Positions 19,051-60,900 of a stretch of 64,000 bases of DNA are shown piece after piece. Each line of letters starts with the position of its first letter. Within the stretch, counting starts at the first letter, position 1. The stretch covers positions 620,001 to 684,000 of the forward strand of contig OZ287076.1 of the NCBI GenBank assembly GCA_965645245.1. The letters are read 5' to 3'. The notes under the pieces were generated by a model, which was not told the DNA's origin, made no database searches, and saw only the letters and a list, made by a program, of their open reading frames with translations. Source of the DNA: Massalongia carnosa (taxonomy: Eukaryota). The translations under genes and the position numbers were made by a program.

Positions 19051-19967
19051 ATGATCAGCTCCCTCATCCAACCTGCCGAGTATTCAAGCCCTGAAGCGGA
19101 AGATTTCTTCTCCTCCGCCTTGAGCGTAATATCCCCAGACGACGTGTCCGTCCTGCACGGGGACCCTGGCTCATCCGTAACCTACAAGTCCAAAAGATAC
19201 GGCGACTTAGAATTTCAATTGTCAGAACCGCAGGCAGAAGATGAACGGAAATTGTTCGCGCAATATCTGTGGAACGCAGGCGTGTTGCTTGCAGAATACG
19301 TTAGCGGGACAGCTGATGAGAAGCATGAAAAAGAATTTGATGTCAAAGGCAAAATTATCTTGGAGTTGGGTGCCGGTTTGTAAATCATGATGTACGAATA
19401 TTTTTGCGCTTGACCTGAGGCGCTGCAGGGACAGGGTTAGTGGGTATAGTCTGTACGCTTGCAGGAGCCAAGGAGGTTGCCATATCCGACTATCCGGCTT
19501 CGGCGCTGTTGGCAACGATTGAGGCCAACGTAAGGAAGAATCTTACGGCCCAGCTCGCATTAAATGTGAATGTCCAAGGCCATGAATGGGGTGTCATCTC
19601 CGATGAATTCTCCAAAGCTCATGCCGGTGAATTTACAAGAATCTTGAGTGCAGACTGCTTGTGGATGTCTGGACAACATCAATGTTTAGTCCAATCGATG
19701 CTTCACTTCCTCTCTTTTGACGGGCAGGCTCGCGTTTGGGTGGTCGCGGGATTCCATACCGGCCGGGCGAAAATTGCAGCGTTCTTCGAGGCGGGAAGAG
19801 AGGCTGGCTTGCAAGCGGAGAAAATATGGGAAAGAGACATTAATGGAAACGAACGAGAGTGGAGAACGGAACAAGACAGCATGACAGAGGATATCACCGA
19901 ACGGAAGAAATGGCTCGTCATCGCTATCTTGCAGCGAAAAGATTCCTTACCTTTCCCGAACCCATAG
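19051..19967 (+). CDS. EFM7: Methyltransf_16 protein N-terminal/lysine methyltransferase EFM7 (NNT1), intron 19376-19428
   Basis: LFAQYLWNAG, ILELGAG|TGL, ISDYP, GHEWG, ADCLW, AGFHTGR motifs. Confidence 0.8.
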
Positions 19968-27012: not shown

Positions 27013-28788
27013 ACGTAATTTACCCTCATTCGGGTCAGCCCCCCACCCCATTAAAATCTAGCGACCGAAAAAAATTCTATCCTGTTTATCCACCACCACC
27101 ATATATTTATCTATTAATTGTAGATAAAATGTCCATTAATATGCCTACAATTGACTCTGCTATTAGATTACAGTTGGCTATCGAAGAATTAGCCAAAAAT
27201 CCGGGCATTCGCAGCGGGAAATAGCGCGCCTTTACGGAGTTCCTCAGTCGACTTTACAGGCCCGGCTCAAAGGCAGCAAAACACTATCATCAAGTCGCCC
27301 AAAGGCTATCCGTCCACGAAGAACAGGCTCTGATTGATTGGATAGAGCGGATGACGTCATGGGGTTGGCCGCCTCGTATCCAACATTTGGAAGGCATGGC
27401 CAGAAGTCTCTTGAACGCCAAAGGGGACAAAAATCCGTTGGGTCGTCATTGGTATCAAAAGTTCCTGAAAAGGCATCCCGATTTCAAAATCAAATACAAT
27501 AGAAACCTCGATCAATCCAGAAAGGACGCTGGTAGTCCCGAAATTTTGCGTGATTGGTTCGAATTGTACACGACCACCTTGGTCAAATATGGGATTTCAG
27601 ATGAAGATACTTACAACATGGATGAAAAAGGCTTTGCTATGGGCATCGCAGACAGTTCGAAGGTCATAATCAAAGGAACAACAACACCATTCAATGTGCA
27701 TCCGGGAAATAGGGACTGGGTTTCTCTTATTGAGTGCATATCATCCCGCGGAACAGTTCTTCCGGCTTATATCATTTTCCAAGGTGCCCAAGTTCAACCT
27801 GCATGGTATGATGCCATGGAGACGAAGGCAGATACCGTTCGGGTCAGTCCCAATGGTTGGACGGATGCGGAGATAGGCCTTCATTGGTTGCAAACGGTGT
27901 TCAATAAGCATACAAAACCTGAACGAGGCATGTATAGGATGCTAATTGTAGATGGCCATGAGAGTCACGTCTCCATTCCTTTTATGGAGTTTTGTGCCCA
28001 AGAGAAAATCATACCCCTTTGTTTGCCACCACATTCAACTCATTTATTGCAGCCCCTGGATGTCGGTGTTTTTGGCCCTTTATCTAAGGCCTATAAACAA
28101 CTCGTTTCCAGCCAATCACGTTACGGGGCTGTGACTATTTCTAAGCTAGATTTTTTGCGCCTTATTCAGGTGGCTAGGAAACAGGCCATTACTACTACTA
28201 ACATCATGAGTGCATGGCGGGGGGCAGGCCTCATCCCATTTAATCCAGGGCATGTTCTAGGCAAGTTGCCTAGGCCTATCACACCTCCTACCTATCCAAA
28301 CACCGTCACCGATGCCCCCCAAACGGAGCAGCGAATCCAGGAAGTCAGCGATGCCCTTATATCCTGTATTAACTCCATCTCTTCGCGCGCATGTTGAGTT
28401 GCTTAAAACAACTGCTTTGAATGCCGTCGCTGATAGGGTTATTCTAAGACACACCAATCAAGAACTGATTGATAAAAAGGCTCAGGGACGTCAAAAAGCA
28501 TCCAGAAAGGGGGGTGTTAAAGCGAGGGTGCTGACTGTGGGTGAAGGGCAGGCGATTGCGGAGGAAAAACAAAGGAAGAAGCATTGGCCAAACAAAAGGA
28601 ACGGTACCATGCTTTAAATGGTAAAGTAAAGTTCGCAAAGGCCGTATGGAAGGAAATGCAGATGGATAGTGATGTTTTTAGTTAGTTTTGGGGATGGTGG
28701 AAGCAATGTAATATTTTTTTTTGGTGGGGTGACCCGATTGGGTGGCTGACCCGAATGGGGGGCTGACCCGAATGAGGGTAAATTACGT
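27013..28788 (+). mobile_element. Full-length pogo/Fot1 DNA transposon (1776 bp), perfect 33-bp TIRs, TA TSD, frameshifted transposase
   Basis: TA|ACGTAATTTACCCTCATTCGGGTCAGCCCCCCA at both ends; HTH region plus YNMDEKGF, NGWTD, IVDGHESH, LPPHSTHLLQPLDVGVF. Confidence 0.95.
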
Positions 28789-39518: not shown

Positions 39519-41614
39519 ATGGCTAAATCCCACCGGCGCTCATCCCGCCTCCAAGGTGGAGCCCCAGTAGGTATCCCCCGCCCCAAAGGAACGAAGCAAC
39601 ACCGGTCCCTTTGGCCCATTCTCAAGCACACCGAGCTCCAACTAGTTTACTAATCTATTCATAAATTCAGACTCATCACAGTAACGTGCCTTTGCCGATG
39701 AAGCTTTCGTCCCTTCTCGAGCACAACGAATCTCCACCCAGTGTATCCCAAGCACAAACAGGTGCCCCCATGTCACCTCCAAGCGCACAACCAAATACTG
39801 CTATCTCGCAGCGCGCTTCTCACCTCCCACTATCAGCGATCAAAACTCCCAATACAACCTCTCGATTCTACCCAAGCCTTGAGGAGATGCATCCTAGTAA
39901 AGCGCATTTAAGTACCACGAAGATTGGGAAATCGGAGTCGCGCTTCCGCCTAGAAGTGCCTAAAGTATTAGGAAAGTTAGCTGGCCCGGAACAATCACCT
40001 TTCGCAGTCATACAAAGCACGCCAACCAAATTGAGAGACTCATTGCCCAGCCATATGTCGTCCCCCAATTTCGACTTTACTCTTGCGCGGCCAGAATCCC
40101 ACCTCAGTATGGAAGCACAGAAGATCATGAATAGTGTTCGCGAAGAAGCAGCCAAGATCAAAGCGCAAATGCAGGCGAAACGTGACGAGCAGGATCCCAA
40201 GGATGGAGAGGCAAACCAGCCGTACGCAGTGGAGGGCCGGAAAATCGCAAAGCCCAAAGGGAGAAGTGGCAGATATAGCGGTGTTCATATGCAGGAGTTC
40301 AAGAAGATGGATTCTATTGTGGGGCATGCGTCAACTTGGAAAACAAAGTTTCAAAATGTATCGTCGCTGAAGCCGAGCAAATCCAAACCCCGTCTTCAGG
40401 GCGGTGAGCCTGGCGGAGGTGCCCAGAGATCCAAGAACATCCGCTCCAACGATGAAGATCGCATCGAAAACAGTGCTCCGGGGAAACGAGCGAGAAAGAA
40501 TTACTCTGAAGATGCATCGGCTGCACGCCCGTCCTCAAGGGAAGCTGTGTCGGAGAATGTAACCACCCAATCGATCCCCTTAAAGGCATGGACTCGAACC
40601 GGATTGCCCAGCGCTGCTACCACTCCCACGAGAGCATCTCTGGCCCGCTCAGCTAGTGTTAAACATACCAAGACCTCTATGATACCATCGCTTAGCCGGA
40701 GCCACTCCACAAAAACCATAAAAAGCCCTATAGCTCCACGAACCGAAGGTGGCAACAAACATCTTTCGTCATTGGCTAGCCTCAGCAGCATGAAGTCCAT
40801 CCTGCATCGCCACCAACCGAACTTCTCAACCGATGTAGCCAAACCGGCAGAAGCCACTCATCTACCAACCTCAAGTAGACTGCCTAACCTAGATAAAGAG
40901 CTGCCAAGTCTTCCGAGCACGCCTCATCCTAGCCTGTTCCGCACCCCTACCGCCGTGAAACGTGTAGACTTTACTCCAAGCACAAAGTCGGTATATGATC
41001 TTGCAGCCGCCTCCCCTTCTCCCTCAAAGATCCCCGCGATGCATCATCCTTCAGAAAATACAGCCCCCGTGTCCGACGAGCCTATTCTCTACCCGTCTCT
41101 GACCAATTCCCCCAACATCACCACCCGCTTCGCCAAACCGCCACTTTCCAGGAACTCCACCCCTGGCGAATTCACCTTCCACGTCAACGAAACCCCCAAG
41201 TTTGACCCCACCGCCTTCTCCGGCAAAATCCCCTCGACAATCAGAAAAGTGCGTCCCAGCGGGATCACCACACCCATGGCCACCGCCTTCACCGCTCTCC
41301 AGCCCATCCCGCACGGGATGCCCAACAAGAAGCGGCGGCGGGCCGATTCTGACGACGAAGAACTCGGCGTGGAGAATCTCGCTCCTGCGGGAACCGCAGA
41401 GGACGGCGAAGACGGCCCGAGATCGAAGAAACCAAAGACTTTGCCGCAGAAAGATGCACCGCTTGTTTCCGGGGGAAAGAGAAATGTTTCGAGGAGTGGG
41501 GAAGGCGGCAGCGAAATTCCGAATTCCGGTGGTATTAGTAAGAGGCAAAAGGGAAGGGGCGTGTTGAGTTTGAGTCGGTTGCACATGCTCTCTCGGCCGA
41601 AAGGCAGGCGGTAA
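39519..41614 (+). CDS. Basic S/T/P-rich protein with a NuSAP-like motif (intron 39567-39670)
   Basis: MAKSHRRSSRLQGGAP|..; block RKIAKPKGRSGRYSGVHMQEFKKMDSIVGH; C-terminal LSLSRLHMLSRPKGRR. Confidence 0.7.
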
Positions 41615-50443: not shown

Positions 50444-52178
50444 ACCGTGCGACCGAAATAAATCCGATGGACCGCATCCCGAGCTCCGCTCGGGGTGCGG
50501 CTCACCTCCATTATAAAAATTTCTATCATCTATCATCAACCATTTATTATTCAACCACATCATGTCTGATTCGTACAAGAAACGAGAGGCTAACATTGCA
50601 AAGGCCTTAGATGCATTTGCAAAGAACACATACAAATCAGCCGCAGCCTGTGCCAAAGAATTCGATATTTCACCTCGTCTATTTCAAAGAAGACTACATG
50701 GATATAGCAAGCGAAAAGCAGTCAATATGAGGCTGTCTGCTGCACTAGAACTAGCCCTGAAGGAGTATATTGAATTTTTTGATGATATTGAATTATCAAT
50801 AAGATTGTCATTGATTCGCGGTGCAGCTAATTATTTGTTGCAATTGCAACATCCTTCCTCGTCTTCAACTTCTCTCACCCGCGTAGGAAAATGCTGGACC
50901 GGACGATTCTTGAAAAGAAATCCCCAATTTTTCATGCAAAAAGGCAAGCCATTAGCAGCCGAAAGGAAAAACGCTCACAATGTTACGGATATTTAAACTT
51001 ATTTCTCTTCATTTCAATCGACTGTAGCCCTTCTTGGTATAACTCCAGATGATATATGGAATATGGATGAGACAGGCTTTCGAGTTGGCTGTGGGGTAAC
51101 CCATTTGGTGGTGACACTATCATCACATAAACGAATTATGATCGCTGATCCAGACAATCGAGAATATAACTTCGGTCGAATGCATCAATGGAGTTGGCGG
51201 AAGCGTTCCATCCTTTTTGATTTTGAAAGGGATCAACATACTTCACAAATGGGCCTTAGAGAATGATTTGAAAGATGATATCGTGTTGACTACAAGCGAT
51301 AGCGGCTATTCGAATGATTGTCTAGCATTAGAGTGGTTAAAGCATTTTAATGCTCATTCAAACAAGGTTCAAAAAGGAGCGTTTAGGCTTCTTTTGTTGG
51401 ATGGATATGGATCTCATCTAACGTATGAATTTTGGGAATATTCGAAAGAAAATAATATCTGTTTATTCAGATTACCCCCCCCCCCCCCATTCAACCCATT
51501 TGACGCAGCCATTGGACGTTGGTGTTTTTCAGCCAATGAAACATTATCATGCTGAAGCGGTTGACAACGCCATTCGGTTGGGTGACGTTGACTTCAATCG
51601 TCTGGATTTTCTGGCCGCATTCAATCAATTTGTACAAAGGCATTCAAATCATCTACTATCAAATCAGCCTGGGAAAAAACTGGGTTGATACCTTACAATC
51701 CGGAGGTAGTCTTGACCAAAATTCGTGCTTTAAATCCGGCCTTACTACCACTACCAATATCATCTTCGGAGACAATAATCCTACCTCATACCCCCAAAAA
51801 GCCCAAAGACGTTGCTAAGGAAGGGGAAAACATTATTCAGCGAATGAATAATAATAAAGAAATTACTCCAGAAAGAATGCGACGTTTTATCAAAGGGTCG
51901 GTCGTCAAAAGCGTGCTGAGACGGCTAGACAAAAGAAAATATTTCTCTATGGAAAAGCGATAGCTAAACGGTTTGGCTTGGTGGGTAAAAAGGCCGAAAG
52001 CTGGATAGATGAACGTCAGCCTTTGATTTTGAATAGCTTCATTTTGAAAGGGTCAATCAATGGATATAATGTAAATAGTTTGAGAAATGCGTCATGGAGA
52101 TGATAGCGTCATGGAGGTGAGCCGCATCTGGAGCGTAGCTCAGGGTGCGGTCCATCGGATTTACCTCGGTCGCACGGT
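50444..52178 (+). mobile_element. Degenerate pogo/Fot1 transposon, ~68-bp imperfect TIRs, TA TSD
   Basis: TA|ACCGTGCGACCGAAATAAATCCGATGGACCGCA.. and ..TGCGGTCCATCGGATTTACCTCGGTCGCACGGT|TA; WNMDETGFRVG, SGYSND, LLDGYGSH, HSTHLTQPLDVGVFQP split by a stop and frameshifts. Confidence 0.93.
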
Positions 52179-53651
52179 TAGTCCATATTTTGGCTTTCCT
52201 TAAACCTCGAAAACCCAATATGACTAATGCCTTATCGAAGCATTTTTCTTTTCACATCACCAAAGCGCTTTAGAGAAATTTCCATAGCTAGATGTTTTTG
52301 GCGACTAGATCCTCAAACACAACGCCTTTCATCCACCAACTTCTTTCTTCCCGATGCAGATGGACCAATGAACTTCGCGTCCCGTATTAAATCGAAGCCA
52401 TAATTACTGGATTGATAGGTGATTTCTGATATACTGCTCTGAACCTATGTGCTGGTACACCTAGGGTACCAACAGAATATCAATAAATACAATATGAACT
52501 TCAGAGTACCTTTGAAACGCAGTGAGTAGACCTGAAAGGATCTGAAAAAAGAAGAGAGTGGAACAGTTGATGTTATGCTGTGTTGTGCTATTAGGAAAAT
52601 CCTAACTCCAGATCAAAAATTGTATGAATAACGGCAAAACCGTACTTTCTCCTTCCGAGTAAATCAGGTATCATTGCCACCACAGGACCATAATACCGTT
52701 GCAAGAAACATTGTTATGGAAGCGATATATACCATGCGGGCTTTTATATGTCTCCCGTGGGTCGATAATGGCCATTAGGAGAACTATTTTGGTTGCCAAA
52801 AACTCAGCACTTCAGGCGTTATAAGACTGAGAGAAAGACACCGGGGCCAAAGAGATCCCACTTAAAGTACTTATTTGCTTTTTGTTTCATTGTTTCCATA
52901 AACCTTTGATTTGTTTTCTAAAGCCAATATCACTTACGCCAGCGCTGTCCAGTCAGATCTTCTAGATATAGTCATTCGTCGGTTTCTATTCGCCCTGAAG
53001 CGTGGCCAAACGAAGGTGAGTATGCCAAAGAAACCCTTAGTCTCTTACCGCACTCCTTGACCTTCGCCCAGCAGGTTTCTTATAGGGCTTGAAGAACCAT
53101 GAGCCTCTCTTAAGAACCTTAGTCTCTCAAGCCCAAAAACCAATTTTCGAGACAAGAAAGCTTCATTTTAAAGGCCCATGAATTCTAAAAACCACTTAAT
53201 AGGAGCAACTTCCTATCCTTCTCCGCAGAAAGCCGCCTCCTTGCGGAGATGGAGGGCTTTTTGAACATATAATTTTGAGCGGAACCCAGTCTCAAAGCCT
53301 GAAAGGATCATTTTAGACTCCATTCGCACTACCTTGAGAGGGACGGTTTTGCACTAGCGCTTTTCCGGGGGGGAGCCCTAGCTCTCTTTCCGCTGTAGAT
53401 AGGCAACAGCCATGTGATGCTTCCTCTATAAAACGCAGCAAATATACAAAACGTTCTGGTGAGGGTAGAACCATTAGAGTATTATCCCAGCATCCATATC
53501 ACATTTATCAACCTCCACATAAAAAAACTCCCGTTTAACCACTTAGCCCATTACCCTATCTATCGCACCCAATCCCACCAACTATTTTCTTTCTCTTCCC
53601 CTAATCCCCCGCCTCAAGTTCTTATTTCTAGCCCCCCCCCCCCAAACCCCT

Positions 53652-53667
53652 AAAAAAATACCAAAAA
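53652..53667 (-). terminator. Pol III oligo-T terminators downstream of tRNA-Gly
   Basis: T5 and T7 runs on the minus strand about 20-35 nt past the tRNA 3' end. Confidence 0.6.
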
Positions 53668-53686
53668 CATAACTTCAACCCTAAGA

Positions 53687-53817
53687 TGCGTCGGCCGGGA
53701 ATCGAACCCGGGGCCTGCCGATGGCAACGGCAGATTTTACCACTTGAGTTTCCAATCAGTCAATTGCAAATATTGATGTAGCGAAAGGGAACATTTTCGT
53801 ACCTAAACCACCAACGC
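53687..53817 (-). tRNA. tRNA-Gly(GCC), 71 nt, split by a 60-nt GT-AG intron in the D-loop (exons 53817-53803 and 53742-53687)
   Basis: Spliced sequence GCGTTGGTGGTTTAG|TGGTAAAATCTGCCGTTGCCATCGGCAGGCCCCGGGTTCGATTCCCGGCCGACGCA folds into a full cloverleaf (acceptor GCGTTGG/CCGACGC, anticodon stem TGCCG/CGGCA, T arm CCGGG-TTCGATT-CCCGG). Confidence 0.9.
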
Positions 53818-55394
53818 TTGATGACTTGAGGGGAATTATTGAGTAATTTATTTTATTGCCAACTTTTATTGGTTAACTGTTGCTTAACTAGCCAAGTGGT
53901 TTCGCGAGAGAGATTAACTAACTCTGGATTTTTATTAAAAAAATTAATATTTGGTTACTTTATGTGAGGAAAGGAAAAGGGTTGTCTTGAGGTATGTATA
54001 TTTTTGCTCGTTTTTCGATTGGAGGAGCAACGTGGATTGTATATGGGATGTATGTGGGGACGTAAACTGTTTGGATATCTGCTTGGGGAAGTTCGGGTTT
54101 TTATGTAGGTATATATCTATCGGCGTCTTTCTGGGTGATCTACTTTGGGTAGGTAGCGTCCAAAGGGGTGGGGGGGGGTTCTTTTTGGACTTTTTGTTGA
54201 AGGGGGGGGGTTTCCTTCTTGGGCTTTCCGCAGATAGATGGCAGGTAGGTAGGTATATCTAGGCCGCATGGGGTTATGTATATCTAAATATCTACCGAGT
54301 GTGTTTACTTACCTAGATACGTACTCGGGAGGCTATGACTGGCTACTATTATCACACTACGTCTTACGTATGTACAGAGTACATATCCTTGCTCTACTTA
54401 CGCCTTCCTGGCTCATGCCCCTTACTAACATATACCTATTCCCAAATACATTGGCTACCGTTATATATACAATCAATTCATCACCCAGACAGACTACACG
54501 CCATTGGCTCTGTATAGTGCGCCTTCTTTATTTCCTTACGGGTATCCTAACAAGAATAGGTAATGCCTTTGCCTGGTTTCCTGGAGCGGGATGGTGGGAT
54601 GGGATAGCAGGCAGATGATCGGGTTGGCAAGTAGGTAGGTACTCGTGGTACTCGTGGTTCTCTGACAATGAACAGCAACACAGAGACACATGGGTGGGTG
54701 GGATCGGCTTGATGAGTGAGGTAGGCGGAGGGAGGCCGTAATCTAGAAATAGCGAGCGCCCATGGAGGTAGGGGGCGAATCTTTTCGATGTTACTCCGTT
54801 TATGGATGCACATTGAGTCTGGGAGAGGACTGTCTCTGGGGGAGATGGGGGAAAGACTTGTTGGCTGGGACGTTGTTGGGAAGTAGGAAAGGTTGAAAAC
54901 CTTCGGCGACTTTTAGGTGGGCAACGCGATCTAGGCTGTTGGTCAGCGCCAATGTGAGTAAGGCTGGGAGATGTCGAGCTTTCTACTATGGATGCTTAAG
55001 ATCCAGCAACCCGAGCCCAAGGAACCAACGGGCCCAAGGATTGGAAACTGCTTATTCTGAATCATGGGCCTTGGAAATTAGAAGGACGTGAAGCTTCTTG
55101 GTGACATACTGATTGAAAATTCTCGCAGGCTCTCTGTACATAATAGCCACTTGCAGATTTGATGGCCGCAACAGTTGGTGAATCTTCGCTATGTTAGCTA
55201 CCAATATGCAAGTCTGCAAACTGATCAATCTCAGCCGCTAGTCCTGCTGCCCGGTTCTCATCGCTATATCTGCGCCTTGGGCAAGAATTGGCAGCTCACT
55301 TGGCAGGGGAACGAGTTGATCTGAATGAGGGGATGGCAGATTTTTATTATAGTCCTCAAATATCAGAACCACCTCACGTCTGCAACGAGAACGA

Positions 55395-55493
55395 GAAGAA
55401 GAAGAAGAAGAAGAAGAAGAAGAAGAAGAAGAAGAAGAAGAAGAAGAAGAAGAAGAAGAAGAAGAAGAAGAAGAAGAAGAAGAAGAAGAAGAA
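55395..55493. repeat. (GAA)33 microsatellite
   Basis: Uninterrupted GAA run. Confidence 0.95.
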
Positions 55494-56252
55494 AATCAAG
55501 AGGGGGAAAGAGAGGTGCTATTCTAGCTAGAAAAAAAGGCCACAAAGTCTGCTCTGACAGCGAGAAGAAGCGTAATAAGACGCGGAAAAGTCACGCTATT
55601 TCTAGCCACACTATTTCCAGCTGAGATGAAGTCTGCAGAGTCGGCTCTCCTAAGCTTGGTCTTTTGGGTTTAAGAACCAGAATCTAGTAAATATCTGGGG
55701 ACAGAGCCTCTTTATGAAGCTAGAGAGACGAGACACAACGGTATTTTGGCGGTCTCGCCTCCTGAACTATTTGTTGGCCACCAAATTTCTGTCTTTTAGC
55801 TATTGAAAACGATCGATTGTTTTTTCCCCCATAAACTGGCACTTTTTTCACTCTAGATAGCCCTAAGCTTAAGGGGAATCAATGAAGTCAATCTTCGGTA
55901 AAAGGTCCAATATAACTTCAGTTCTGCTCGGCCTGGATGGTATGATAGCTTTTTTGCAAGTGCTGTCAACACGTTGATACTATGAATGTAAGTATTAGCA
56001 CTGTCTAAGGAAGAACCACGGCAACCATTAACAACAAAATATCTGACAGTTGGTTTTATTTCCTGTCAGCCCCCTTCTGGCCTGATACCCGTCAGTTACA
56101 TAAGAAAAGATCTGGTTTCAAAAAGCGAAAGTGATTATCTCTCGGCCCGTTTTAGATACTACAGTCACAGGAGTTGAGTAGTTGACAGCTACCTCGTACG
56201 TCTCCTCCCCTTATTTCTCTTTTTGTATATTTTAATAAGTAAATATCGAACC

Positions 56253-56328
56253 CTCCAACCACCGGAGTTCGAACCGACGAAGGTGTGCATTTACGAAGCG
56301 AACGGGATTACCACTTAACTATACAGGA
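56253..56328 (-). pseudogene. Degenerate tRNA-like sequence (tRNA pseudogene or SINE head)
   Basis: TCCTGTA-TAGTTAAGTGGTAATC...GTCGGTTCGAACTCCGG: A-box and B-box at tRNA spacing, but acceptor and anticodon stems pair poorly. Confidence 0.55.
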
Positions 56329-57913
56329 TAGTATGTTGTTTAAGAGGAACATAAGTGAAGAATATTGTTGTGAGTTTGTTCTTTCGGAAAACCTTTGATA
56401 GCCCTAAGATGCGCTGGGCTAGGCCATCTAGTCTCCGATAGATAAATGTATTCCAAATATTGATGGACCTCTGGTTCCTAGGTCTCCAACGAAGTCTTCA
56501 ATAAATCTCGCTATTTCAAGCTCCAGCTCGTCCTGATACATAGACGGTTGTTATGCTTTGACAAGTAATTCGGCTTTGGGAAGCATATTTTGAAAAAAAT
56601 AACATTCGTATATTAAAACACCTGTCAAATAGTACATAAGGGAAACCCTAGGTTCGTGGGAACTGTGGGTATACGAGAAAAGACACTGAGTCGAAAATTC
56701 GTGGTTGCAGAAGCGGGGCCAGGAATGACTAGGCGGTTTGTTATTCAATATGTGAGCATGGAGTATATCATTTCGTTTATGTCCACCTACCTATTAGTAC
56801 AAAGGAATTTGCAATCAGCACACATCAGCATGCGCAGGCTCAGATACTAGTGAATTTAGCCGGTGGGATGAAACTTAGGGGGCGGTACGAAAAGGGGTCT
56901 ACCTTTACAGAGTACAGACTATTCGATCTGAGGTGGCGCACAGGATGCGCTTCCTTCAAACTTTCAAGGGACTTGAAAGACCGAAGTACTTTGTACCTTT
57001 GGTTCTTGAACTATTGAGTGAGCGTAGAGCGGCTGAAAAATGATTGCCATGTAGAACCAATGATAAGGCAAACCATGTTCTCTAAAAGCCAAATCAAGGA
57101 CACTGTGGTGAACATCTTCAAGATGAGATAAAATCTGTCGCCGTTACGTCAACATCCAGTAAAACTTGAGTCAACCATAGCCTCTGCTTCCTATACCTGA
57201 TCCTCGTTCTTGTTATTTTTCTTCTCAGATAGAACCTGCGCCCTACGCGTCCTCGCGTTATGCGCCTCGACTCTTCAGCCCTCAATGTGCACAAATTTCC
57301 CCCATGCCGACAGTACCGCACACGTGATATGTGGGGGATGTACGAGTTACAGATTGTAGCCTAAGACCAAATCCAGACGTGAGCGAGGTCCACGCGCATG
57401 CGAGGTGACGAGTAAGATACGGATGAATGGGGCGCATTCAATGTCAAGCAAAAATAAACACAGGGGAATGGTAGGTAGTTTGATGTAAAGGCTGCGGAAA
57501 TCAGATAGAGATCGGAGCGGATTGGAATTCTGGAGACAGAAGTTCTAGCGGAGGGAAGGGGTGTTAGTGTTTGAGGGTGGATATTGTATGAGTCATGATC
57601 AGACGTTAGGTATCATGTTCCTGGGATAAAGTTATTGCTTGATGCGCTAACGGGCGGCGAACCTAGATACATAGTTACCTAACTAGTGTCGATCCCGCCG
57701 TATTATATTTTTTGGTACGAACGAGTCCCCCATATCCATACAGAGCACAGAGGCATCAGTTCAATTATAGACGTTAGAAATGCTGCCTACCCTAGTTTAT
57801 GATCTGGCCTTTTGACTCTTGCAGTCCACTGACAATATTAAAACTTTGTCCTAAATGAATGCTTTGGTGGTGCTCATCCCAAACCTCTCGCCTTGATATA
57901 TTCAATATCCAAT

Positions 57914-60900
57914 ATGGCTACAGCCTTCACCCCCAGCTTAGCCCCTTCCAGCCGACAGCCAGCTCTTCATGCGCCGATAACGGTAGTTACAGCTCCTGTT
58001 GCACCCTCTGGCACGTTTGCCCCAGGCACCAAGGTCCAAGTCGGTGGTCATAGAGTGGTGATTGAGAAATATCTGTCGGAAGGAGGCTTTGCCCATGTAT
58101 ATCTAGTGAGGCTACCAAAAGCCATTAATGGGGATGATGGGGCAGTCTTGAAAAGAGTCGCGGTGCCGGACAAGGAAGCGCTTGCCAGCATGAGGACTGA
58201 GGTTGAGACTATGAAAAAGCTGAAGGGCCGGCGTCATATTGTTACCTACATGGATTCGCACGCATCGCAATTAAGGGGGGGAGGCTACGAAGTATTTCTA
58301 CTCATGGAGTACTGCAACGGCGGAGGCTTAATGGATTTCATGAACACACGTCTTCAAAACCGTCTTACAGAACCCGAGATTTTGTCGATATTCTCCGATG
58401 TTGCGCAAGGAGTTGCCAATATGCACTACCTTAAGCCACCGCTACTTCATAGGGATCTAAAAGTTGAAAACGTCCTGATCACCTCATCAGGAACTTCAAG
58501 ACGGTATAAGCTTTGTGACTTCGGGTCGGCCGCCGCTTCCACGCCGGCTGCGACAAATGTGGCCGAAGGAAGACTCATCGAGGAAGATGTACAAAAGCAC
58601 ACCACTCTCCAATATCGCAGTCCAGAAATGATCGACGTTTTCCGGAAGCAACCAATTGACGAGAAAAGCGATATTTGGGCTTTAGGGGTACTCTTATACA
58701 AGCTCTGTTATTATAAAACTCCATTTGAAGACCAAGGCCAAATGGCTATACTCAACGCACGCTTCAAATTTCCTGGGTATCCTTCGTTTTCGGATGACTT
58801 GAAGAAATTGATTGGTGGGTCTTCTCCCTATATACTGATTTAATGACTGATCATGTTCAGCATCAATGTTGCGAGAGGTTCCCCAGCTTCGGCCCAATAT
58901 TTATCAAGTGGTTCGCGAGGTTTGTCTAATGCGAAGGACCGATGTACCTATAAAAGATGTAAGGCTGTCCGTTACTACTTGGTGTATGATAATAACGAAA
59001 CCAGATATACTTCAGCCAGACTCCTTCCCAAGCCCGACAAGATCAACAACCCCTTTTACCTCAACCTCATATAGCTTCACCTCCGATGATTGGTGCATAC
59101 CAAGTTTCGCCAATGGAAGAGAAACAAACATTACCAGATATCGTCCCAATGAGGCGTGGTCGACCAATCAAGTCGGAACTAGAGAGTAAAGGTCCCAAAC
59201 CCCCACCTTCTCCGATTCGAGGTGCGGTTGGAGATCCATTTACGGCGCTGGACTCGACTTTGCCTTCTGTTCCTAATGGCGATCTTGTTGATGGTGTTTC
59301 ATGTAGATTCCCCCCCCTGGATGAATTTTCTATTCTGCATGACTCTGGGAGCAAATTTGCGTTTGATCTCAGTTCTGAACCAACCGCCAAAGCCCCAAAG
59401 GACATTAGGGCACGAGTAACCGATGCTTTGGCAGACGATGCCTTTGCTCAACCGTTGCCACCAGCCAAGGCTCTTCCAAACCCTGGGGTACCTACGCTTC
59501 ATCTGGATGCAAAGCTAACTGATGTTTCGGAATTATCCATATCGAAAGCCTCACAGCTTCCCACAAATCAACAGGATCTTTCTCAACGGCCGCAAATGGT
59601 CTCTACAGGCACAATGACATCCCCATCACCTCCATCTACCATCATCTCTACACGTTCACCTCGTCCAATCTTTCACTTCCCGCCTGCTGAGCACAGATCA
59701 TCAAGCCAGCCACGAAGACATGATGCGGACACGCTTGCAGCCTCAAATCTTAAACCTAACGCACTTGTCAACATACGACCGGGACTTCGTGACCAACGCT
59801 CAAAGTCTCAACTCTCGGCTCTTGACGTCGCTAAGTCCAGCACGTCCTCTCGTCCTTCATTAGAGGGCCCAAGGCCCTCAATGCTTGAGACACACAGCAC
59901 CATCAATAGGTCCAAATCAGCGAGTTCAAGGGCTAGGCCTTTTAATGTCAATGAGGACGGGACAAGGACCTCACAAAGTCGAGAAACAGCTCGAGGAGAA
60001 CGATATCGCACGGAGCCGCATCAGGAAACGTATAATCGCGAGTACATCCCATCTAGTCGAAATAGTGGGCCCAGCAATGGACTTGAAAGCAGTAATATAA
60101 CCTCTGACGTTGAATTTTTACGAGCTATAGAGGAACAAGACCCTACGAAGAGGAAAGTAAAACGATCAGGCAGCGGATCGAAGCATGCCAAACGATCAAG
60201 TATGCCGTCCTTGTCTCTTTCGGGAACGAAATCTCTCCTTGTAGGAAGGTTTGGAGATGCGTTTCGTCGATTTGAAACCAACTCCGGCGGACCCAGCCAA
60301 CGTGGTTCATCGCCCTCTCCGAAACGCGGCGATAGCGATCTGACCCCGATAGCTGGTTCCGAGGCGACGGATGGTAGAAGTGACGACGGCCATGCAATCG
60401 AGGAGACTGAGCCCATCCCTCCCGAAGTGCGCCGAGAACTTGAGCGGCGGCGGCTTTCTCAGGAAGAGAAACGCGTTGCGGATGCTGGGGCGGCTTATCG
60501 ACAAAAGTTTACTGAGAAGCCAGAGGGCCAAAACCCTTCCAGCGAGGGGCAGCGTAATAGTCGGGCAGCATCAATTCAAAGCAAAGTCAAATCTCTCCTG
60601 GACGAAAGCGGCAGAGCCTCTCCATTGAAGCCCGACCAAGACTATGGTCTCTACTCTTCTAATCCCCCGGTACCAAACCCCCAGGTACAGGACGAGCCCT
60701 TTTCCCGAACTATACCCAGCCAATCTCAAATTCAGAAGAAACCGCCGCCAAGTAATAACGCCCTTCACCCGTCCATGCGGTCAAACCCGCCACCATCCGA
60801 ACCTGCTCAAAACACCTACAAGCAACAAACCCCCGTCATCACCTCTTCCGTACCATCTACCACCGACCGTCCCTTCCCCCGGCCCAGTGCCCCACCGAAA

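Follow-up and report, generated by a model that had tools for sequence, protein, structure and literature searches.

Spliceosomal introns, tRNA introns and the XBP1 intron have been presented as three unrelated types, with the spliceosomal ones residing in Pol II transcripts (excerpts of PMC12530127, 2025). Textbooks likewise keep spliceosomal and tRNA introns apart, as distinct systems in different host RNAs. A tRNA-Gly(GCC) gene in the genome assembly of Massalongia carnosa raises the question of whether an intron of the mRNA type can also sit in a tRNA gene and be removed from its transcript. The gene lies on the minus strand at 53687-53817 of the window, by which we mean the whole stretch of 64,000 nt that was analysed (assembly GCA_965645245.1, contig OZ287076.1, positions 620,001 to 684,000). 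An insert of 60 nt divides it in the D-loop.

Our preferred reading, to which we assign a probability of about 0.45, is that a filamentous ascomycete associated with lichens has here a nuclear tRNA-Gly(GCC) gene whose nucleotides 15 and 16 are separated by a U2-type GT-AG intron of the spliceosomal type, and that removal of this intron by the spliceosome would restore a canonical tRNA. The organism is placed in this group because a lichen metagenome contains the locus and because its short introns and gene content are in the style of Pezizomycotina.

The interrupted gene and its surroundings

The features of the locus, all on the minus strand, are the following:

53803..53817, minus strand: tRNA-Gly(GCC) exon 1, 15 nt, nucleotides 1-15 (direct sequence and ARAGORN)
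53743..53802, minus strand: insert, candidate spliceosomal-type GT-AG intron, 60 nt, GC 0.37
53687..53742, minus strand: tRNA-Gly(GCC) exon 2, 56 nt (direct sequence, ARAGORN and Rfam)
53797..53802, minus strand: candidate 5′ splice site GTACGA after exonic TAG; STM1 intron 1 has an identical donor hexamer
53755..53763, minus strand: overlapping candidate branch sites TTGAC and CTGAT (motif positions)
53743..53745, minus strand: candidate 3′ splice site AAG, the first AG downstream of either branch candidate
53698..53708, minus strand: Pol III B box GGTTCGATTCC, an exact match to GGTTCRANTCC
53652..53667, minus strand: candidate Pol III terminators, T5 at 53667-53663 and T7 at 53658-53652 (direct reading)
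53834..53858, minus strand: AT-rich stretch, conceivably a TATA-like element (direct reading)

Exon 1 holds the 5′ strand of the acceptor stem, U8, the 5′ strand of the D-stem, A14 and G15, and ends in TTTAG. The insert starts with GTACGA and ends with CTCAAG. Exon 2 supplies the remaining D-loop, the 3′ strand of the D-stem, the GCC anticodon arm, the T arm, the 3′ strand of the acceptor stem and the discriminator A. Once the insert is removed, the cloverleaf and the invariant nucleotides of a tRNA-Gly(GCC) are complete. The exons joined by script from the window sequence form a 71-nt molecule that ARAGORN accepts, with an acceptor stem of 7 bp (one of them G-U), a D-stem of 4 bp, an anticodon stem of 6 bp and a T-stem of 5 bp; direct reading finds U8, A14, G18G19, U33, the T-loop GTTCGA and the discriminator A in place. 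Since exon 1 and the insert both have AG as their last 2 nt, the cut could fall after nucleotide 13, 14 or 15. Only one of these three equivalent registers, with the cut after nucleotide 15, gives the insert GT and AG ends.

Standard annotation tools pass over this gene. ARAGORN, reading the locus as uninterrupted, reports no tRNA in the 64-kb window, and no Rfam match in the window reaches the gathering score. At a loose threshold Rfam returns only a partial tRNA match at 53695-53749 (20.1 bits against a gathering score of 29), and ARAGORN, when introns are permitted, wrongly reports a tRNA-Leu(caa) here. Because tRNA finders miss split genes of this kind, the counts of tRNA genes in lichen fungi may be too low. 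An earlier sequence-only reading of this DNA had predicted that scanners would overlook the gene, as ARAGORN and Rfam both do. Its exon and insert coordinates and its 71-nt tRNA-Gly(GCC) were reproduced by the script join and ARAGORN. Its placement of the insert after G15, away from the usual 37/38 site, also stands, at 15/16 or, in the equivalent registers, 13/14 or 14/15.

The signals expected of a Pol III gene are largely present. In addition to the B box, the T5 and T7 runs begin 20 nt past the 3′ end of the tRNA, and exon 1 is preceded, at a distance of 17-41 nt, by the AT-rich stretch. T runs inside the insert reach 3 at most, as the sequence-only reading had stated. The A box is interrupted: by what we take to be its consensus, 8 of its 11 positions (the first 8) fall in exon 1 and the AGTGG part is found 60 nt downstream. 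A second B-box match in the window, at 40590-40600, was discarded since its surroundings are not tRNA-like.

Around the gene, about 5.7 kb (52060-57917) contain no gene that Pfam recognises: 0 of 77 short ORFs match, and neither does any scanned ORF of at least 90 aa. The nearest recognisable features are a decayed Tc5/pogo transposase at 50517-51552 on the plus strand and a protein kinase from 57842.

Splice signals and the identity of the insert

The insert was compared with mRNA introns from its own genomic environment. Enumeration of introns by ORF continuity produced 1373 and 207 candidates, mostly noise, and was dropped in favour of eight introns of the window delimited by hand from the coding frame across conserved genes. 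These are introns 1-2 of RPS12, introns 1-4 of STM1, one intron of a Methyltransf_16 gene and one at the 3′ end of an ankyrin-repeat gene.

The eight local introns are 47-111 nt long with a GC content of 0.36-0.47, and the insert, at 60 nt and 0.37, falls inside both ranges, bearing out the suggestion that its length is that of a local mRNA intron. Local donors are GTATGC, GTGAGT, GTACGA, GTAAGA, GTACAC, GTTTGT (twice) and GTAAGT, with G at +5 in six of the eight; the acceptors are TAG in four introns, CAG in two and AAG in two. GTACGA and AAG are not the commonest of these signals. Both are in local use, as the sequence-only reading had pointed out: GTACGA opens STM1 intron 1 (26747-26637) and AAG closes RPS12 intron 2 and STM1 intron 3. 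A YTRAY motif is found 9-22 nt from the 3′ end in the local introns (n=8). In the insert the TTGAC candidate would place the branch A at 53760, 17 nt from the 3′ end, and the CTGAT candidate at 53756, 13 nt from it; the latter is the branch A named in the sequence-only reading. In seven of the eight local introns the first AG past the branch motif is the acceptor, and the same applies to the insert.

This combination is rare by chance. Among 127,880 60-mers counted on both strands of the window, 450 run from GT to AG. Those that in addition carry G at +5, together with CTRAY at a distance of 8-35 nt from the 3′ end, number 6 (4.7e-5 of all 60-mers), and some of them may themselves be real introns. 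At such a frequency the insert is no random piece of DNA. Judged by these motifs, it is an insert with the full U2-type signature of the local introns, and it very probably belongs to the spliceosomal-intron kind.

Two minor observations concern the local introns. GTACGA occurs 24 times in the whole window against 15.0 expected (24 was reached in 1 of 100 shuffles), and one occurrence lies within the methyltransferase intron, at 19392. In STM1, a second exon of 19 nt stands between the 111-nt intron (26747-26637, minus strand) and a 47-nt intron (26617-26571, minus strand); the interior of intron 1 contains an in-frame-looking ATG followed by a GTAAGC donor, which would give an alternative intron of 37 nt.

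An intron of the tRNA splicing endonuclease type would be expected to show a bulge-helix-bulge (BHB) that places both cuts symmetrically. We went through every 4-bp central helix with a 3-nt bulge on either side, and with bulges of that size no BHB, strict or relaxed, has the correct spacing at the junctions. Three candidates lie close to the junctions; their flanking helices measure 0-2 bp on the outer side and 0-1 bp on the inner side, and they would excise 57, 59 or 63 nt where 60 is needed. The sequence-only reading, which saw no such motif, agrees with this enumeration. A 37/38 intron of the endonuclease type was rejected on this absence and on the position at 15/16 (or 13/14, 14/15).

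The insert does not resemble a mobile or self-splicing element either. It has no repeat copies in the window, where only chance words of at most 16 nt are shared, and contigs of two public runs (X1 and X4, compared over 53200-54300 at 80% likeness) contain no second copy. Across the contigs of all four runs considered below, the sole second locus at this likeness, a tRNA paralog, matches exon 2 and not the insert. The predicted fold is ordinary (MFE -8.6 kcal/mol, z-score -1.05), which makes the insert unlike a structured introner-like element or a self-splicing intron; with no further copies in the sequences compared, an introner-like element appears unlikely. The junction repeat is limited to the 2-nt AG, and no terminal inverted repeat was seen by eye. 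The proposal that the insert is of spliceosomal and not endonuclease type thus draws on signals that match local introns and are rare by chance, on the missing BHB, on the lack of repeat copies, and on persistence in a diverged relative (X4, below); on these grounds of sequence it appears sound.

Origin by internal tandem duplication was also rejected: local alignment of the insert with the exons, the permuted tRNA and the flanks gave no significant match (p = 0.12-0.40). A weak likeness exists between the insert's first 25 nt and the start of exon 2 (p = 0.02, in a positional comparison made post hoc). Separately, a structure that mimics a D-arm, with a GTTT/AAAT stem and an 8-nt loop, could arise from the GTTT of exon 1 (within 53803-53808) together with the insert's first 15 nt (53788-53802, minus strand; GTACGAAAAT...). 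The two features may reflect a trace of duplication, the retention of an A-box- or D-arm-like element, or chance.

Spliced gene or recent casualty

Contigs of four public runs from three studies (X1, X3, X4 and X5) were compared with positions 53200-54300 at 80% likeness. X1 and X3 come from one study, possibly the source of the window, and their contigs are identical over the insert. X5, from a third study, provides a contig that is free of differences across 53721-53967. The lichen metagenome X4, which belongs to a separate study, has the whole stretch including the insert on an 11.6-kb contig that has diverged by 19 substitutions and 4 indels per 1101 nt (1.84%). The insert contains two of its substitutions, at intron positions 36 and 40 (on the plus strand, 53767 C>A and 53763 A>G). 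They avoid the donor, CTGAT and the acceptor, and the change at 53763 converts TTGAC to CTGAC. None of the 71 exon positions has changed, which against the 1.84% background has P about 0.27, so that the absence of exon changes in X4 is uninformative alone. The sequence-only reading would have been refuted by splice signals lost in related loci while the exons decayed; in this relative, about 1.8% diverged, the signals are kept and the exons are unchanged.

A pattern search of metagenomes for the end of exon 1, 40-70 nt, and the D-arm, anticodon and B box of exon 2 returned three matches, all false. These (L001, L002 and, at 1551-1625, L003) are ordinary uninterrupted tRNA-Gly(GCC) genes that encode the terminal CCA and fitted the pattern through a chance upstream 9-mer. 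Split tRNA genes of this kind were seen at one locus, in close relatives.

An intronless copy of the gene exists, and the split copy can be told apart from it, two points that the sequence-only reading had raised as questions. In X1, X3 and X4 a second contig of up to 8.6 kb matches 53687-53744 with 4-6 differences, at a depth similar to that of the main contig. In tRNA orientation this second contig runs directly into a 5′ half starting GCATTGGTGGTTT, with no insert, and T runs after its 3′ end constitute its own terminators. This intronless tRNA-Gly(GCC) isodecoder has A at nucleotide 3 where the split copy has G3, and about 6 further differences lie in exon 2. With these distinguishing bases the split copy is trackable in RNA. 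Its nucleotide 3 pairs intactly with its own 3′ strand, which points to selection for structure at some time after the duplication, though perhaps not after the insertion. In X1 and X4 just two loci matched at 80% likeness, a threshold that more diverged copies would escape; the split gene may be one of just two for this isoacceptor at a likeness of at least 80%. The presence of an intronless paralog in the same genomes means that the split copy could be dispensable.

Spelled out as a pathway, the preferred reading describes a nuclear tRNA that depends on the spliceosome. Pol III would transcribe from upstream of exon 1, through the insert, to the T5 and T7 runs. In the resulting pre-tRNA-Gly(GCC), U1 would pair with UAG/GUACGA, U2 would pair at CUGAU or the overlapping UUGAC, and the first AG past the branch would serve as acceptor. 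The D-loop intron would leave as a lariat, and ligation of the exons would give an intact D-loop and a canonical 71-nt tRNA. We advance this complete pathway, ending in a working tRNA, tentatively, and below even odds. Pol III transcripts have no cap and no loading of splicing factors coupled to Pol II. Further points against a spliced tRNA are the 5′ exon of only 15 nt, the interrupted A box, the intronless paralog and the restriction to a single locus. As for origin, an excised mRNA intron would have been inserted immediately behind an AG. It may have entered the tRNA by reverse splicing, with reverse transcription and recombination as later steps, or have been captured in the repair of a DNA break with AG microhomology. 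The data fit both routes; reverse splicing could be the source, and we propose it by inference only.

The strongest competitor is a young pseudogene, in which a 60-nt piece that is intron-derived or intron-like has inactivated the tRNA-Gly(GCC) gene, is not productively spliced, and decay has not yet begun. Reverse splicing with retro-recombination could have brought such a piece in, or it could be filler DNA placed at a break where 2 nt of AG gave microhomology, and the AG repeated at the junction suits microhomology as well as it suits a protosplice site. The paralog at similar depth in the same genomes and the split A box speak for inactivation, the small divergence of X4 (about 1.8%) means that its intact exons weigh little, and the gene sits in about 5.7 kb devoid of Pfam-recognisable genes and adjoined by a decayed Tc5/pogo transposase. 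However, every stem and invariant position is intact, as are the B box and the terminators. The splicing signals are all kept in both lineages and the insert has no T run that would stop Pol III; a full signal set is rarely expected in random filler, and the nucleotide 3 difference from the paralog is matched by an intact pair on the 3′ strand. We consider a dead gene possible, on balance doubtful.

Far less probable is a non-canonical intron cut by the tRNA splicing endonuclease and sealed by ligase, with GT and AG ends by coincidence. D-loop introns are known in Cyanidioschyzon, cryptomonad nucleomorphs and Archaea, and some of those in the Guillardia nucleomorph reportedly have no defined BHB (excerpts of PMC3978253), so the missing motif alone does not decide against the endonuclease. 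The cut site, moreover, is ambiguous by 2 nt. Against this stand the absence of a BHB or relaxed form with correct spacing, the full spliceosomal signal set at a chance frequency of 4.7e-5, and a position other than 37/38, to which the ruler mechanism of the eukaryal enzyme is inapplicable (as cited in excerpts of PMC3978253). Our searches of the open-access literature turned up no ectopic tRNA intron in fungi.

Just as improbable, in our estimate, is that the tRNA-like exons are processed from a larger Pol II product, either a non-coding RNA or a UTR, with an ordinary Pol II intron in tRNA-derived sequence. This would account for access of the spliceosome, and the long flanks with no recognisable coding genes leave room for an unannotated non-coding transcript. 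No host gene was found, however, among the 77 short ORFs and the scanned ORFs of at least 90 aa in 52060-57917, and the locus is equipped with an exact B box and with T-run terminators spaced as expected of a Pol III gene. An assembly or sequencing artefact can practically be dismissed, as the insert is in contigs of four runs from three studies, one of them a diverged relative with its own substitutions in the insert.

Known systems and what a spliced tRNA would mean

The spliceosomally removed intron that we favour would have parallels in other non-coding RNA genes. Spliceosomal introns are listed in U1, U2, U5 and U6 snRNA genes and in rRNA genes in excerpts of a 2018 review of U6 (PMC5855946). 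U6 is a Pol III transcript, and S. pombe provided the first case of an intron in it (Tani and Ohshima 1989; see also Tani and Ohshima 1991; both as cited in PMC5855946). The same review calls it unclear what determines insertion into non-coding RNAs, and asks for validation of U6 intron splicing in other species. Like the insert described here, the S. pombe and other fungal U6 introns are short, have GT-AG ends and a branch site, and lie in the gene of a small structured Pol III non-coding RNA. Reverse splicing has been proposed as their origin, as we propose it for the insert (excerpts of PMC5855946).

The comparison with U6 has its limits. The U6 RNA is located at the catalytic centre of the spliceosome, which is the usual explanation for its gain of introns and does not extend to a tRNA. 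tRNA genes need internal A and B boxes, and the insert splits the A box, unlike the U6 case. Splicing of the S. pombe U6 intron is established, whereas that of the tRNA-Gly insert is a prediction from DNA sequence.

The rRNA genes of ascomycetes, many of them lichen-forming, provide the closest ecological parallel. Spliceosomal introns in ascomycete 18S genes were described by Cubero et al. 2000 and Bhattacharya et al. 2000 (as cited in excerpts of PMC11889510, 2025). They resemble the insert in being of spliceosomal type within a structured, abundant non-coding RNA that is not made by Pol II, and they lie in conserved regions with non-random flanking sequences, in the same ecological group of fungi (excerpts of PMC11889510 and PMC5855946). 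In contrast to the insert, which is at one locus of a Pol III tRNA in close relatives, they have a Pol I host and occupy many sites in many taxa.

Among tRNA introns the likeness is one of position. Eukaryotic ectopic tRNA introns are recorded in C. merolae and nucleomorphs, where BHB motifs mediate their removal (excerpts of PMC3978253). Those of Cyanidioschyzon merolae, the Guillardia theta nucleomorph and Archaea share with the insert a place in the D-loop, the failure of scanners to find the gene and the interruption of the internal promoter. They have a BHB or relaxed BHB and are cut by the endonuclease; the insert instead has GT, a branch site and AG (compared with excerpts of PMC3978253). 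Removal of canonical nuclear introns at 37/38 restores the cloverleaf, as removal of the insert would. The insert differs from them in its position at 15/16, its length and its end signals, and has no anticodon-intron helix.

Given its sequence, the insert is best filed as a spliceosomal intron in a non-mRNA gene, for the first time with a tRNA host. The sequence-only reading knew of no described case, and our search of the open-access literature likewise turned up no tRNA gene described as having a spliceosomal intron (subscription journals were outside the scope of the search).

If the insert really is spliced out, it would be the first mRNA-type intron seen in a tRNA. The spliceosomal introns of lichen-associated ascomycetes could then enter Pol I rRNA, Pol II mRNA and Pol III tRNA alike, and the three unrelated intron types would not be bound to their usual host RNAs. 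The list of non-coding hosts would extend to the most abundant Pol III product. The locus would offer a natural substrate for asking how the spliceosome finds an intron in an uncapped, structured Pol III transcript of 131 nt, what degree of A-box disruption TFIIIC tolerates, and whether reverse splicing into abundant RNAs makes introns. If the gene is dead, the locus is still a dated intron-like insertion into a non-coding gene.

Some minor features of the window complete the description. A Tc5/pogo-type transposase (HTH_Tnp_Tc5 and DDE_1) is present as an open ORF of 390 aa at 27225-28394 on the plus strand, and the frame-broken fragments of this type at 50517-51552 lie about 2 kb from the tRNA gene. 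A G-rich tract, GGGGTTTGGGGGGGGGGGG, occupies 53630-53649 on the minus strand just beyond the T-run terminators. The X5 contigs end at this tract, and X3 has a homopolymer loose end at 54212.
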